Source: Escherichia phage Ec_Makalu_001. Taken from it: 64,000 bases of DNA. Under the pieces are notes generated by a model, which was given only the letters and a program-made list of their open reading frames with translations, was not told where the DNA came from and ran no database searches. Position numbers and translations under genes: made by a program. Within the stretch, counting starts at the first letter, position 1, and every line of letters starts with the position of its first letter. Below are positions 39,384 through 44,691 of this stretch, one piece after another. The stretch is taken from the sequence record MN894885.1. One strand, given 5' to 3'.

Positions 39384-40607
39384 TTACGCTGTCAACTCTT
39401 TTTCAAAAGATTTTACGATATACATGATAGTGCTCAATTCAGACGGCGCTACTGTTTCGGTGTAGCCATCCGGCATATCTTCTTTCGAGATATAGGAAGT
39501 CTTGCCTTTCATCGCTTCCTTGATCTTGTTCTCTAATTCTAAGATCTTTTGACCGTCTTGTAAAGTCAATTCATAAAAGATCTCGTGACCGAACTTTGAA
39601 ACACGAGATTGGTTTCTCATGCGCTCATGTGTTTCTTTGTTTGTTATTCCAAATTTCACGCCAACAAAGGAATCATTGTTGGTTAATTTCTGTATATAAA
39701 GAGTTCCTGTCTTTAATGCCTGATAACCATGCTTAGAACACAACGGGCAGCGTGTTCCGCGATTAACAAAATTATCAATAGTTACATCCCATTCATGGTT
39801 ACGTTCGCATGTCAGAAGTATTCTTGTTAATGCACCTTTCCACTTTCCTGAAATCCCAATAAATTTTAGTCTGTTGGTTTCGCATATTTTTTCAATTTGT
39901 TTTAATCGGTCACTTTTTGTTATTGGTGCTGTTCCGCTACATTTGCGACACCGACGACCTAGTTTGAACTTATCATAACTTTGTTCGTAAATGTGATTAT
40001 TAGGACACTCAAATTTAAGTTTAGTTTTTGTTCCTCTCCATTCCCCAATTATACCCAAAAATTTATAATCTCCTTTATTTTCATTTATATAAGATAAGGA
40101 ATCTTCTTTATCATGCATCTTGCCCCCGTTACATAAAGGACATCTTGTTTTTTGATGAATGAAATCTGTATATGTTGGTTGGTATGTGTGTCCGTTTGTA
40201 CAGTTCATAATGAGTCTTGTTCTGCTATTTTTATACTCCCCACCAACAAAACCAACAAATACATCGTTTGTTTCTTGTTTTATTCTTTCTATCACATTGT
40301 TTGGGTTTAATCTTTGAGAATCAACCACACATTTCTTACACGAAACTTTTTTCCTGATATTTGCTAGAGTTGATGTGTATTCATGCTTGTTATTACATAA
40401 TATAAGAGCTTTTGTTTTGAGACCAGACCATTCTCCAACAAACCCCATGAAAGAATAACCAACTTCCAAACATGAATTTTTTACAACATTTTCCCAATAG
40501 AAGGGAGTTTTCGTGTTTCCTTTTATTTCTATACGAATCTCATGTGCTTGACGTACTAACATATTTTTATCCTCCGTTGTTTCGATGTGTGTATTATACA
40601 TTACCAC
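39384..40607 (-). CDS. protein with four tandem zinc-ribbon modules and C-terminal GIY-YIG-like (T5orf172-type) domain; putative homing-endonuclease-like
   Basis: 407 aa; four ~55-aa repeats each F/I-x-G-x-x-G-E/K-W ... C-x-x-x-H ... C-x-x-C; C-terminus LYIQKL...VGVKFGITNKETHERMRNQ. Confidence 0.45.
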   Translation of the reverse strand: MVMYNTHIETTEDKNMLVRQAHEIRIEIKGNTKTPFYWENVVKNSCLEVGYSFMGFVGEWSGLKTKALILCNNKHEYTSTLANIRKKVSCKKCVVDSQRLNPNNVIERIKQETNDVFVGFVGGEYKNSRTRLIMNCTNGHTYQPTYTDFIHQKTRCPLCNGGKMHDKEDSLSYINENKGDYKFLGIIGEWRGTKTKLKFECPNNHIYEQSYDKFKLGRRCRKCSGTAPITKSDRLKQIEKICETNRLKFIGISGKWKGALTRILLTCERNHEWDVTIDNFVNRGTRCPLCSKHGYQALKTGTLYIQKLTNNDSFVGVKFGITNKETHERMRNQSRVSKFGHEIFYELTLQDGQKILELENKIKEAMKGKTSYISKEDMPDGYTETVAPSELSTIMYIVKSFEKELTA

Positions 40608-40682: not shown

Positions 40683-41630
40683 TTACATCGCTAACAGAGA
40701 ATCCAGGTCATCCAGATCAGAAGCGGAGGAAGTACCGCCACTCAGGTCCAGAGATGCCATCAGGTCATCAGCGGAAGAATCTAACGCCGTGCTAGCGGCG
40801 GTAGTACCAGCGTCGAATGCATTCATCTGTGCGTCAAAATCGTCAAGCTGGCTGTTAATCGCTGCCGCAGCACTGGAAGCCGCAGCACCAGCTACCATAG
40901 ACACGCCCATAGTTTTCTTAAATTTGGTTTCCAGTTCGTCAAACGGTTTAAACTGGCTAGGTGCTACAATCTCACCCAAATCAACCATGTTTTCCATCAG
41001 ATATTTCTGGTATGCTTCGTCTTCAATTTTCGGAAGCTGTGATTGCTGCATGAAACGAGAATCATCATAGTTCTGGTGTTTATCAACCTTCTTAGCTTTC
41101 AGGAGGAAGTTAGCGCCAGAGAACACACAAGTTACATCTACCGGAACTTCGCCCATGTCGGTATTCACGTTCACCATCGCAACGATCTTATCATAAATTT
41201 TCTGACCGAAGCGGAATTTAAATACCTTGCCTTCGTTTTCTGGTGCTTGAGGATCTTTCAGTACCAGAATGTTTGCGTAGTAAGACGCTTTACGCTTAAT
41301 CAGTTGCCATTCGGTTTTATCGGTATTGTACAAATCTTTTTCGTTAATATATTTGCACACAGGGCAAGAATCAAAATCACCGTGGGTGCTGGAGCAGTTT
41401 TCCCAATACCATTTTCCATTAACTTTGAAGGAATGGTTTACCAGTTTCACAATCGGCAGACCGTCTTCTGTCTTAGACGGCAGGAAGCGAATCAGGGCTT
41501 CACCGTTACCTGCTGCATCAGTCTTAATCTTCCACTCTTTCGGGTCTTCTTTGGAGAAACCGTTGCCACCTTTCAGTGCGGCCAGTTGAGCTTGCAGTTT
41601 GGAAGAATCTTGGCGTTTAAACATATTCAC
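40683..41630 (-). CDS. 32: single-stranded DNA-binding protein gp32
   Basis: 315 aa; strong similarity to T4 gp32 ([22 protein letters not shown], acidic C-terminus). Confidence 0.9.
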
Positions 41631-41642
41631 TATTCCTTCTTT

Positions 41643-41690
41643 TGATTAATTTACGAGACTATTATACAGATTTAAATTTACTTGTCAACT
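41643..41690 (-). promoter_or_regulatory. sigma70-like promoter upstream of gene 32 (TTGACA-16 bp-TATAAT)
   Basis: Minus-strand reading TTGACAagtaaatttaaatctgTATAAT; coordinates approximate. Confidence 0.45.
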
Positions 41691-42365
41691 ATTTGTTTCG
41701 GCTTTTAATTGAGATATTTCTTTACACTCTTTAACGACTTTAACAAATAATGCTCTTGCTTTTGCGGCGTCAATAACAAGTAGTTTCTTGTACGCCTTCA
41801 TTTTAACACTATAAGTTTGCCAAATCAAGTCTTTGGCTACCTTGTCGTGTTCGTCGATTATATTTAGAAAGCTATCTAACAACATAAACGACTCAAACGA
41901 TATAATCCGATTTTGCAGTAGTTTAAAGATACCGCTAGTTTCGGTTGCGGGATTGTATGTAATTAGCTCTTTAAGAGTAACCCCGCGTTTCTCGGAGAAG
42001 TATACCAGACTTTTAATGTCATCGTCAAATCGTGTTGCCGCATCGGTTATCTTTCCTATGTATTCCATATAAAAGCCGTATGCGTCAACATCAGTGATTT
42101 CACCTACCCATGCATCGGTATTAGCTACCAGATTGCTTAGGAATAGGAAGTATAATTCTCTTAGATTGTACTTTTCCGCTAATTTCGCGAAATAATACTT
42201 ATCTCTGCGTTTATTGAATGCGGCATCAGATAACCGCATCCTCCAATTGTATTTTACGCAATCATAACGCCCGTTCATATGAGCTTTCATCATGCAATAT
42301 AACATATACACAGATTTAGCATTAATTCGCATATCTGGATCTGGAGGAAGACGGTTTCTGATCAT
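41685..42365 (-). CDS. 59: helicase loader gp59
   Basis: 226 aa; similarity to T4 gp59 (KSVYMLYCMMKAHMNGRYD, KYNW.MR.SDAA..KRRDKY). Confidence 0.85.
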   Translation of the reverse strand: MIRNRLPPDPDMRINAKSVYMLYCMMKAHMNGRYDCVKYNWRMRLSDAAFNKRRDKYYFAKLAEKYNLRELYFLFLSNLVANTDAWVGEITDVDAYGFYMEYIGKITDAATRFDDDIKSLVYFSEKRGVTLKELITYNPATETSGIFKLLQNRIISFESFMLLDSFLNIIDEHDKVAKDLIWQTYSVKMKAYKKLLVIDAAKARALFVKVVKECKEISQLKAETNS

Positions 42366-42374
42366 ACATACCCC

Positions 42375-42644
42375 TTAAATATCGAGAGTGTTGGTCGGTT
42401 CGTCGATCACTCCCTTCCTGAGCGTTCTATTTACTATACATTCTTGTGTGATCTTGTCAATAATGGACACCGGAATATACTTCTGATAGTGACCATATTC
42501 GATAGAGTTTTCCTCTACAAACTGCGTTGTCGCTTCAAGATAAGTCAATCCCTCTTCAACAACCAGTTTTTCGATTGCAAGACCGTTTGCTGTTTTGTTC
42601 GCGGCTTTTACCGCATGTTCATTAAGCATTGAACACCCGATCAT
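42375..42644 (-). CDS. possible gp33 late transcription accessory protein (position-based)
   Basis: 89 aa; position between 59 and rnh region as in T4; no motif confirmed. Confidence 0.3.
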   Translation of the reverse strand: MIGCSMLNEHAVKAANKTANGLAIEKLVVEEGLTYLEATTQFVEENSIEYGHYQKYIPVSIIDKITQECIVNRTLRKGVIDEPTNTLDI

Positions 42645-42897
42645 AGAGTTCTACCGCTTCGTCGCGTTCTGCTTCGAAGGTTTCGCGCTGTTGCTGGTGA
42701 TATAGTTTAAACAGAATACCCCACATTTTACCATCTACGCCTAATTCTTCTTTAGCACGCTGTTTGATCTCTTTGATCTTATCGCCGTATGCTTCTTGAA
42801 TGGTTTTCTGATCGCTGGCTTCTTTAATCAGTTGTGCCAGGGTATTTCCGTGCACTGCTTCGTCAAATACTACTTTTTCTTTTTTCTGTTCAGTCAT
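42622..42897 (-). CDS. possible DsbA dsDNA-binding protein (position-based)
   Basis: 91 aa; size and position as T4 dsbA; no motif confirmed. Confidence 0.3.
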   Translation of the reverse strand: MTEQKKEKVVFDEAVHGNTLAQLIKEASDQKTIQEAYGDKIKEIKQRAKEELGVDGKMWGILFKLYHQQQRETFEAERDEAVELYDRVFNA

Positions 42898-42901
42898 AAT
42901 A

Positions 42902-43501
42902 TTAACCCTCTTTAGTCATTAATTGAAAACCACGTTCAGCTTTTGAGATTTCGCTAGGACGTAAATCATCATCTACATATTCTAGCATCATTTCTCTGAT
43001 AATGTCAAGTGCTTTTTCATCACCTGATTTTAACTCGAACTCAAGTTCATAATGAGCAGTGTCGCCCAATCCTTCGCCTACTTTGCCATAATAGAAAGTG
43101 TCTTTGCACATTTCCACTATACCACAACCCATATCTAGAGTCAATGACTTGCGATATGTCATTACTTGCATTATTGTAGTGATATAGTCTGAGTTTACCC
43201 CTAGACTATCAATAAAATGGACGAACTCATCCCAATTTGAAAATGTCATTTCCTCGCGGTTGAATAGTCCAGATTCATTATCACCCATTTTGACCATGAT
43301 CTCTGATTTTCTACAGTCAAGTCGTGCATAAATTCCTTTTTGACGTAGCGCATGGTCTTCGGTATCATAATAAAATTCGTGTTTTAATATGTTATCTCGA
43401 TCTACGATATTATAACCGTCATACATTGCCACCCACAAATCACAGATGGTTTCGACGCCAATTTGTGAGTGTGCATAGTATTTTAACTCAAGTTCTTTCA
43501 T
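42902..43501 (-). CDS. CYTH-like (triphosphate tunnel metalloenzyme) domain protein
   Basis: 199 aa; N-terminal ExExK (ELELK), later acidic strand YELEFELK; absent from the canonical T4 dsbA-rnh interval. Confidence 0.4.
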   Translation of the reverse strand: MKELELKYYAHSQIGVETICDLWVAMYDGYNIVDRDNILKHEFYYDTEDHALRQKGIYARLDCRKSEIMVKMGDNESGLFNREEMTFSNWDEFVHFIDSLGVNSDYITTIMQVMTYRKSLTLDMGCGIVEMCKDTFYYGKVGEGLGDTAHYELEFELKSGDEKALDIIREMMLEYVDDDLRPSEISKAERGFQLMTKEG

Positions 43502-43511
43502 GTGTCAACCC

Positions 43512-44459
43512 TTAGAACTCACCAATTTTCTGCAACATTTTAACTAGCGCATTTGTTACAAAATAGTTATAAATTTTACCGCGTGGTGCTGGTTTAGATT
43601 TTTCCCATGCTAACAAAATTTCATATTCGATGTTATCAGGAATAAATTCAAAATCAATAAGTTCGCGGTTTTCGTCAAAGCGTCGTGCTTCTTCCTCTGT
43701 CATCAAAGACTTTGGATCTTCGGCATCGAAAATTTGCTCTAACCATTTGGTTGCAATTGGTTTAGCTCGTTCCCCTTCCAGCCGTGAGATAATGAAATCA
43801 CTACGGCACTTGATAGAAGCTACACCGTCTTTTGCGTCACCCTTAACACATTTTACCATAAGGTCTTTGTAAGGACTACCATATTTGCATTTCTTCCATG
43901 CTTTCTGTACTGGTGCCCACTGTTTCACATTTTTGTATTTGTGCAACTGTGTGTAGTCACCATCGCCGGAGTTGATTAGCACCTGGCGACCTTCTACAGA
44001 AAACTTTTTAGTTAACACAGCGATTATATCATCTGCCTCAACTTTGTCAACCTTAATAACGTGATAAGGCATGTTCTCTTTAAACTCTTCGGTGATCTTA
44101 TTGATTGCAGCAAAGATCATCTCCCAATCACGCGGATCTGCGTCTCGCTTTTCCTTACGGTTACGCTTGTAATAAGGTGCGATATCACGTCGCCAGTAAC
44201 CTTTGCTAGAGTCAAAGGCAAGTACCGTAATCGGGTATTGCTCTTTGAATTTTGTCATATTATAACGCATGGTGTCAAGGATAAGATGACGAATCATACC
44301 TTCGCTAATCGGATCTTCCGGCTTAAATGTATGAGAGATAGTAGCAATCATAAGCTGCGACATATCAATCAAATGCACACCTTCCGGCAGTTTATCTTCT
44401 GGATCGTCGAAGAAATCATTAAGTGTAGCGGTAGTTTTTGTAAACGGGTTATACGTCAT
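43512..44459 (-). CDS. rnh: RNase H / flap endonuclease
   Basis: 315 aa; similarity to T4 RNase H (GYWRRD..YYKRNR, DGDYTQL, KPAPRGKIY). Confidence 0.85.
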   Translation of the reverse strand: MTYNPFTKTTATLNDFFDDPEDKLPEGVHLIDMSQLMIATISHTFKPEDPISEGMIRHLILDTMRYNMTKFKEQYPITVLAFDSSKGYWRRDIAPYYKRNRKEKRDADPRDWEMIFAAINKITEEFKENMPYHVIKVDKVEADDIIAVLTKKFSVEGRQVLINSGDGDYTQLHKYKNVKQWAPVQKAWKKCKYGSPYKDLMVKCVKGDAKDGVASIKCRSDFIISRLEGERAKPIATKWLEQIFDAEDPKSLMTEEEARRFDENRELIDFEFIPDNIEYEILLAWEKSKPAPRGKIYNYFVTNALVKMLQKIGEF

Positions 44460-44461
44460 AA

Positions 44462-44674
44462 TTAAGTTCTCTCCACTCTCACAACAACATATTCGCCAAA
44501 CGAGTTAGATACTTCACGGTCATACCCGTATTTCTCCATAACTCGCAGAATTGCATTGTTTAATTCAGCACGGAAATAATTGTAATCCTTATCTGGGATT
44601 CTGTCAACTATCCATTTTGCACCGTCTGACAAATCAACTTTAACCATAATATCATCCTCTTTTGTTTCTATCAA
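44462..44674 (-). CDS. hypothetical protein (70 aa)
   Basis: ORF abutting rnh start. Confidence 0.4.
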   Translation of the reverse strand: MIETKEDDIMVKVDLSDGAKWIVDRIPDKDYNYFRAELNNAILRVMEKYGYDREVSNSFGEYVVVRVERT

Positions 44675-44683
44675 GCCTCATTT

Positions 44684-44691
44684 TATAAATA
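44684..44691 (+). promoter_or_regulatory. T4-type late promoter motif TATAAATA upstream of gene 34
   Basis: Exact TATAAATA ~28 nt upstream of ATG at 44720. Confidence 0.55.

Follow-up and report, generated by a model that had tools for sequence, protein, structure and literature searches.

The window analysed here, a 64,000-nucleotide (nt) stretch of Escherichia phage Ec_Makalu_001 (sequence record MN894885.1), carries on its minus strand a 199-codon open reading frame (ORF) at positions 42902-43501, which starts with ATG and ends with the TAA at 42902-42904. On profile, fold and residue evidence, the 199-amino-acid (aa) product is a member of the CYTH or triphosphate tunnel metalloenzyme (TTM) family. 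It is likely to be an early-expressed, two-metal triphosphohydrolase, a TTM of the YgiF type without the CHAD domain, whose specificity has probably shifted away from plain inorganic triphosphate (PPPi). An initial annotation, made from the DNA alone, had placed a CYTH protein between dsbA and rnh, and this is borne out by the evidence presented below; the ORF coordinates and the two motifs it named, ExExK and YELEFELK, were exact on re-translation. The family assignment is correct but already public, and is not new. What is new here is the YxRxD deviation in the active site, the conservation of the tunnel as against the divergence of the remainder, the swapped-allele core of the gene and the persistence of its genomic slot.

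Family, fold and active site

The protein matches Pfam CYTH (PF01928) with an E-value of 1.4e-7 and 32 bits, compared with a gathering score of 23.2, over profile positions 21-179 of 179. When 17 family members were combined in a profile, it could be aligned end to end (residues 3-195) with the YgiF tunnel domain of E. coli (PDB 5a60), and hhalign against 41 YgiF-like CYTH proteins gives a probability of 99.8% (E 2.9e-28). The AlphaFold2 model is confident (pLDDT 92.9, pTM 0.86); it consists of eight long strands and helices, and has the eight-stranded antiparallel beta-barrel of the tunnel fold. No Pfam match to a CHAD domain was found, the protein stopping right behind the plug helix, at residue 199, and a scan against NCBIfam gave no match. 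A phmmer match to the TriTu immunity protein 7zhm (E 0.03) was absent when the family profile was used, and was attributed to chance.

The closest relative is E. coli YgiF (5a60/5a61), an inorganic triphosphatase (PPPase). Identity to it is only about 22-23%, too low for a recent capture of the host gene. YgiF has 433 aa with a linker and a CHAD domain, whereas the phage protein has neither. The phage beta3-beta4 hairpin is 2 residues shorter than that of YgiF, and a Phe has shifted from position 115 to position 136 on the neighbouring strand.

The N-terminus of the phage protein reads MKELELKYY, and YELEFELK lies further along. These and the other active-site elements are encoded as follows.

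43481-43495, minus strand: ExExK (E3, E5, K7) on strand beta1, equivalent to YgiF Glu-4 and Glu-6, ligands of metal site 2 (roles from PMC4641920)
43316-43330, minus strand: clade-specific Y58-A-R60-L-D62 on beta3, in the register given by hhalign, spacing and MAFFT
43034-43048, minus strand: ExExE (E152, E154, E156, supplied by YELEFELK) on beta8, equivalent to YgiF Glu-158, Glu-160 and Glu-162, ligands of metal sites 1 and 2 (roles from PMC4641920)
42929-42946, minus strand: SKAERG (K187, R190), a C-terminal plug-helix motif conserved across YgiF-like CYTH domains

In YgiF, Glu-4, Glu-6 and Glu-162 hold metal 2 and Glu-160 holds metal 1, Arg-56 is essential, and Lys-69 assists substrate binding (Martinez et al. 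2015, PMC4641920). The active site was compared in a MAFFT alignment of 45 members of the phage clade and 143 YgiF-like outgroup domains. Seventeen positions are at least 87% conserved in the outgroup, and the clade keeps 16 of these; the residues named as kept are E3, E5, K7, Y44, D46, R60, K71, R82, E84, R117, E130, D134, E152, E154, E156, K187 and R190. ExExK is invariant in the 45 clade members and 99% conserved in the 143 outgroups. E154 and E156, which align with YgiF Glu-160 and Glu-162, are likewise invariant, as are all four metal-ligand glutamates across the clade.

The sole exception among the conserved positions is position 62. It is Asp in 44 of the 45 clade members and Asn in the other, compared with Arg in 129 of 137 outgroups, none of which has Asp or Asn. 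The motif is RxD/N in 45/45 clade sequences as against RxR in 129/137 outgroups. R60 corresponds to the catalytic first Arg (YgiF Arg-56, AtTTM3 Arg-52), and is retained and invariant, whereas the second Arg of RxR (YgiF Arg-58, mouse thiamine triphosphatase Arg-57) is missing from the clade, where D62 takes its place. A Tyr two residues before R60 is present in 42/45 clade members, with V, I or S replacing it in the remaining three, and in only 1/137 outgroups, which have Ala, Ser or Gly at this position, as is the case for YgiF and its relatives. Solved relatives in the alignments shown carry aLRiR.

R60 is identified as the catalytic Arg, and D62 as the replacement of the second Arg, because hhalign, spacing and MAFFT agree. 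In 117 of 118 outgroups, RxR follows the 'xxDT' strand at a distance of 12 residues, while the next hairpin varies from 4 to 16. A HMMER single-sequence alignment had put Y58 on YgiF Arg-56, as if the catalytic Arg had been lost and the enzyme were inactive or cyclase-like, but this register was overturned by the same three lines of evidence. A further candidate, F136 as a newly gained tunnel aromatic, was not counted. Positions 115 and 136 are Phe and Gly in outgroups but Thr and Phe in the clade, and the aromatic looks relocated between these two positions, which, judging from the hairpin register, would lie on neighbouring strands.

Conservation within the clade follows the tunnel. Mean entropy is 0.71 bits at tunnel-facing strand positions and 1.6-1.7 bits at the rest, and 14 of 40 tunnel-facing positions are invariant compared with 5 of 110 others (Mann-Whitney p = 2e-9). 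Such a pattern is consistent with an active enzyme whose tunnel is fixed and whose exterior changes fast.

Predicted activity, substrate and alternatives

The protein carries the hydrolase signature, namely ExE on beta8 together with a central Arg. Catalysis most likely follows that of characterised TTM hydrolases. We infer that a Mg2+- or Mn2+-bound triphosphate would bind in the beta-barrel tunnel via K7, R60, K71, R82, R117, K187 and R190, and that E154 would hold metal 1. The second metal (E3, E5, E156) would activate a water for attack on the terminal phosphate, and inorganic phosphate would be released.

As to the physiological substrate, we infer from the residues of the tunnel that a small organic triphosphate is more likely than free PPPi; this could be a nucleotide or something like one, possibly a compound resembling thiamine triphosphate (ThTP). 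An organic substrate is favoured because of the D62 and Y58 changes, and because the host pyrophosphatase and YgiF already provide PPPase activity. Y58 occupies the aromatic position of the W/YxRxR motif of thiamine triphosphatases (ThTPases), whose W/Y side chain makes a stacking contact with the thiazole ring (Vogt et al. 2021, PMC8233210); the last Arg of this motif is D62 in the phage protein. The mammalian 25-kDa ThTPase (3bhd, 5a64) differs accordingly at the third position of the motif, Arg as opposed to Asp in the phage protein, and its overall similarity to the phage protein is below that of YgiF. ThTPases form a separate sequence cluster (cluster 8), apart from other triphosphatases (Vogt et al., PMC8233210). 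As a rough apportionment, an organic or nucleoside triphosphate is a tentative first choice and PPPi or short polyphosphate a credible but somewhat less probable one, while some other substrate is unlikely and the 5'-triphosphate of RNA more unlikely still.

Several points weigh against this reading. YgiF acts rather specifically on PPPi: it hydrolyses ThTP slowly, shows no activity on ATP, GTP, ITP, PPi or polyP65, and is devoid of cyclase activity (PMC3440374); since it is the closest characterised relative, the simplest transfer of function is PPPase. AtTTM3 Arg-54, the counterpart of D62, is dispensable for PPPase, the R54A mutant being active (PMC4641920), so the change from Arg to Asp need not alter the substrate. 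Where Y58 and D62 lie with respect to the substrate is predicted from strand parity and from homology to ThTPase and YgiF, and the promoter calls (see below) are consensus matches only. In MK327935.1 (vB_EcoM_G2494) the CYTH gene is annotated as two ORFs and is found by tblastn in 2 pieces, and a 66-aa fragment has been deposited. The split reflects either a natural frameshift, in which case the isolate would be a knockout already at hand, or an error in sequencing, and it suggests that the gene is dispensable in culture. Finally, neither biochemical or genetic data on any clade member nor a functional study of any phage CYTH protein, this clade included, was found in the literature.

The alternative that survives best is that the protein, like YgiF or NeuTTM, is simply a specific inorganic triphosphatase that would clear PPPi and contribute to phosphate recycling during infection. 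The PPPi might come from dGTP/dNTP triphosphohydrolases or from turnover of polyphosphate, for example. This is a real possibility, if short of an even one. YgiF is the closest protein by both sequence and structure, the catalytic residues are all kept, AtTTM3 tolerates loss of the equivalent second Arg, and the name already stands in some GenBank and IMG records. On the other hand, charge reversal at a tunnel Arg that is 98% conserved, combined with an aromatic at the ThTPase stacking position would be unexpected for a substrate as highly anionic as PPPi, which has itself not been demonstrated in E. coli (PMC3440374). In addition, most of the PPPase activity in E. coli extracts stems from the ordinary pyrophosphatase (PMC3440374). 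A plain PPPase would be largely redundant in a host so supplied, and with high host activity (PPase, YgiF) its selective benefit is unclear.

A role in counter-defence or in sanitising of the nucleotide pool, by hydrolysis of a triphosphate immune messenger or antiviral nucleotide such as dITP (Kongming, RADAR) or the viperin ddhNTPs, is a further alternative, which we regard as unlikely. A fast surface, an allele-swapped core and a constant tunnel form a pattern often seen in conflict genes, and Y58 and D62 suggest a nucleoside-type substrate. Phage dNMP kinases take part in the making of dITP, an immune messenger, and no phage enzyme that degrades it is reported in the Kongming preprint; the only counter-measure described there depletes dAMP, not dITP. 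Moreover, Iyer and colleagues (PMC7824862) suggested that jumbo-phage CYTH triphosphatases might degrade unwanted NTPs. All of this is entirely circumstantial. No PADLOC match (E <= 1) was obtained for the window protein, P0044 or P0045, no literature link was found, and CYTH proteins are not mentioned in a structure-based screen of viral signal-manipulating proteins. The dN/dS of 0.27 gives no sign of overt positive selection, and the clade is rare, being confined to Krischvirus among 50,697 phage records and to 3 loci in IMG/VR. The triphosphorylated p3diT of Clover was rejected as a target, as this signal is inhibitory and degrading it would harm the phage.

A narrower version of this proposal, that the clade is a new CYTH specificity class (YxRxD for (A/S/G)xRxR) cleaving a conflict-relevant nucleoside triphosphate, e.g. 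dITP or a ddhNTP, is improbable. If true, it would be the first enzyme with the triphosphate-tunnel fold in phage counter-defence, and the changing surface and swapped alleles would represent escape from host recognition.

Improbable to the same degree is an RNA 5'-triphosphatase acting on triphosphorylated RNA, either at the ends of Okazaki primers ahead of RNase H or at mRNA ends to modulate decay through RppH and RNase E; in the latter version, 5' ends of host or phage mRNA would be converted to diphosphates. The gene lies directly after rnh in the same operon, an arrangement kept down to about 34% identity, and the TTMs of giant viruses are RNA triphosphatases and detectable structural relatives. 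The Cet1-type enzymes (mimivirus 2qy2/2qze, Cet1 1d8h, vaccinia D1), the only viral TTMs of known function, have the TTM fold and the acidic-patch metal site in common with the phage protein. In structural comparison, however, the phage protein is not closer to Cet1-like enzymes than to small-molecule TTMs.

It is very doubtful that the protein is an inactive binder (a sponge) or a regulator that sequesters a phosphorylated ligand. An Arg-to-Asp change in the tunnel could in principle impair turnover, but the catalytic Arg is present as R60, and the glutamates that hold the metals do not vary. Least credible of all is a class IV (CyaB-type) adenylate or nucleotidyl cyclase making a cyclic nucleotide to manipulate the host, as named in several GenBank records. 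Synthesis of a nucleotide messenger had also been considered in the initial annotation, and is disfavoured here. Class IV cyclases are distinguished by HFxxxxExExK, a central Arg exchanged for a small residue, and ExA on beta8 (Vogt et al. 2021, PMC8233210), and the phage protein departs from all three: HF precedes ExExK in 0/191 clade and outgroup sequences (only M-K precede it), the central Arg is kept as R60 instead of a small neutral residue, and E154-F-E156 is ExE rather than ExA. By comparison with CyaB and YpAC-IV (2fjt, 3n0y), the orientation required for cyclisation would not be expected, and YgiF, the nearest relative, is not a cyclase.

Distribution, evolution and expression of the gene

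The gene and its surroundings are arranged as follows.

42902-43501, minus strand: CYTH/TTM gene, 199 aa, YgiF-type tunnel domain without CHAD, orthologue of RB49ORF244c
43512-44459, minus strand: rnh (T4-type RNase H / 5'-3' exonuclease), adjacent upstream gene, co-directional (Pfam RNaseH_C, E 2.6e-37, and 5_3_exonuc_N)
42622-42897, minus strand: dsbA (double-stranded DNA-binding late-transcription protein), downstream neighbour (Pfam Phage_DsbA, E 5.4e-22)
42375-42644, minus strand: gene 33 (Pfam Trans_coact)
43502-43514, minus strand: rnh/CYTH junction, read from the sequence as the rnh stop TAA, GGGTTGACAC, ATG
43040-43490, minus strand: divergent core of the CYTH gene (about aa 10-150), an allele-replacement island defined by sliding DNA identity
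44579-44607, minus strand: promoter-like TTGACA-17-TACAAT upstream of rnh, candidate early promoter of the rnh-CYTH-dsbA unit
44023-44050, minus strand: promoter-like 12/12 match to the consensus inside rnh
42979-43008, minus strand: promoter-like TTGACA-18-TAGAAT with an upstream TG, in the conserved 3' part of the CYTH gene, candidate dsbA promoter

The gap of 10 nt between the rnh stop and the CYTH gene carries a Shine-Dalgarno-like AAGGG, and 4 nt separate the CYTH stop from the ATG of dsbA, whose Shine-Dalgarno sequence AGAGGG lies inside the final CYTH codons.

Across the 2.4-kb region, identity is 99.2% with Escherichia phage Ec_Makalu_003 and 95-97% with Phi1, ECD7 and further Krischvirus genomes belonging to the RB49 group. 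By tblastn the gene was found in 58 phage records, all of them Krischvirus, with none outside this genus. Beyond the phage records, an exhaustive search of 1.84 billion representatives with a hidden Markov model (HMM) returned only six clusters below E 1e-10, the three IMG/VR loci are all near-identical, and a word-indexed protein search for remoter members recovered only the narrow family. The clade is rare. A Skers-type allele has been deposited under an E. coli name (AAHF58_000195, 'hypothetical protein'), and its source is probably a Krischvirus genome that was assembled with, or labelled as, its host.

The gene has been recorded before under various names. In RB49 it is RB49ORF244c, with the GenBank note 'similar to P45267, P30871, HI1598, ygiF', and it was entered as 'CYTH domain' by Nolan et al. 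2006 (PMC1524935). An identical protein is deposited as QHJ73464.1, 'inorganic triphosphatase [Escherichia phage Ec_Makalu_001]', and relatives are named 'CYTH domain-containing protein' in UniProt. Most records read 'hypothetical protein' and a few 'adenylate cyclase', while 'inorganic triphosphatase' is found in some GenBank and IMG records.

The dsbA gene comes immediately after rnh in T4, Aeromonas phage 44RR2.8t and a Jiaodavirus; for T4, the absence of a CYTH gene between the two had been pointed out in the initial annotation and holds. Three metagenomic relatives have 52%, 41% and 34% identity to the CYTH protein (global alignment), with dsbA and 33 directly after the CYTH gene, and rnh precedes it in L003, the sole distant contig that reaches upstream. 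The rnh-CYTH-dsbA slot is old within the lineage, and is kept down to about 34% identity.

Within this slot the gene has diverged far more than its neighbours. Compared with RB49 and Skers, proteins from the flanking genes are 96-100% identical, whereas the CYTH protein is 84% and 57% identical, respectively; on the distant contigs the figures are 34-52% for CYTH and 70-82% for the neighbours. The divergence is concentrated in the core, where DNA identity in 60-nt sliding windows is 73-88% to RB49 and 43-70% to Skers, compared with 95-100% in the flanks. The breakpoints are sharp and lie inside the CYTH gene, of which the first ~30 nt (43472-43501) and the last ~140 nt (42902-43040) are as conserved as the flanks, and aa 152-199 are identical even in the 57%-identical Skers allele. 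In the core, dS is 0.46 against RB49 and saturated against Skers, in comparison with 0.05-0.30 in the flanks. Because dS is high and dN/dS is only about 0.27, the core is best read as an old allele exchanged by recombination that is under purifying selection and is not decaying.

By analogy with T4 and from matches to promoter consensus sequences, the CYTH gene is probably expressed early and would be co-transcribed with rnh and dsbA. The counterpart cluster of T4 is expressed early and in the middle phase of infection. In 2.5 kb there are 21 sigma-70-type promoter-like sites on the minus strand, compared with 7.6 +/- 2.8 in shuffled sequences, and no convincing terminator was found between rnh, the CYTH gene and dsbA. 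The candidate dsbA promoter, about 80 nt upstream of dsbA, is also present in RB49 and Skers, and may add to the constraint on the conserved 3' segment of the CYTH gene. Promoter-like sites in or after the CYTH 3' end occur at other positions in the distant relatives L004 (12/12) and L005 (11/12). There is also a TTGACA directly before the CYTH ATG (43480-43508, minus strand), conserved in RB49, Skers and L003, which in the window pairs with a TAAAAT inside codons 6-8. In L005 there is a perfect TTGACA-17-TATAAT whose -10 element overlaps the CYTH ATG. A transcript from the site before the ATG would start inside the ORF, and the site could be due to chance.

Neighbouring genes and wider significance

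Other features of the region concern the genes around the CYTH slot. The 3' part of rnh (43583-43672, minus strand) has a divergent patch of its own, with 63-75% DNA identity to RB49 and Skers, compared with 93-100% in the rest of rnh. Between rnh and gene 34 there is a small ORF (44462-44674, minus strand) of 70 aa from a TTG start, for which a 61-aa version is likely. It corresponds to the hypothetical RB49ORF246c of RB49 and is conserved in Skers, and probably in L003; it has no Pfam match and is not found at this position in T4. The T4-type late promoter consensus TATAAATA occurs at 44684-44691 on the plus strand, ~30 nt upstream of the start of gene 34 (44720), a position that would be expected for a late tail-fibre gene. 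The count of this motif over the whole window is 5, which is not above chance.

Downstream of gene 32, a 407-aa ORF (39384-40607, minus strand) contains, as judged by eye, several tandem repeats of ~60 aa with paired Cys motifs, following the pattern F.GF.GEW.G..TK....C...H.Y....C..C. The ORF at the same place in RB49 is RB49ORF239c (DUF723 in Nolan 2006), and in Skers the annotation is putative GIY-YIG nuclease; the window ORF is probably a homing-endonuclease-like gene. Between its genes 59 and 32, Skers also has a gene for an HNH homing endonuclease (L002 5802-6398) that is absent from the window (~41630-41685), and DNA identity to Skers collapses at ~41616-41723 of the window.

Uncharacterised CYTH ORFs are also found in other large myoviruses, namely as Aeh1ORF004c and in Aeromonas phages 65.2 and D3, Klebsiella phage Eowyn and uncultured Caudovirales. 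These proteins are remote Foldseek matches (E 5e-8 to 6e-3, TM 0.35-0.51) that were not retrieved by sequence search with the Krischvirus clade, and, judging by its ORF number, Aeh1ORF004c would lie far from the rnh-dsbA region. The occurrence of such ORFs shows that the fold has been acquired repeatedly by phages.

For annotation, the gene is best described as encoding a CYTH/TTM triphosphohydrolase of the YgiF-like kind; 'adenylate cyclase' should be dropped, and 'inorganic triphosphatase' is a presumptive transfer of function. The Krischvirus clade provides a compact, confidently modelled and easily expressed example of 199 aa with one defined deviation in the active site, Arg to Asp together with a Tyr. 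If the substrate is PPPi, this raises the question of why a phage would remove PPPi where the host already does so. If it is a signalling or antiviral nucleotide, the clade would bring a new enzyme fold to the counter-defence tools of phages.

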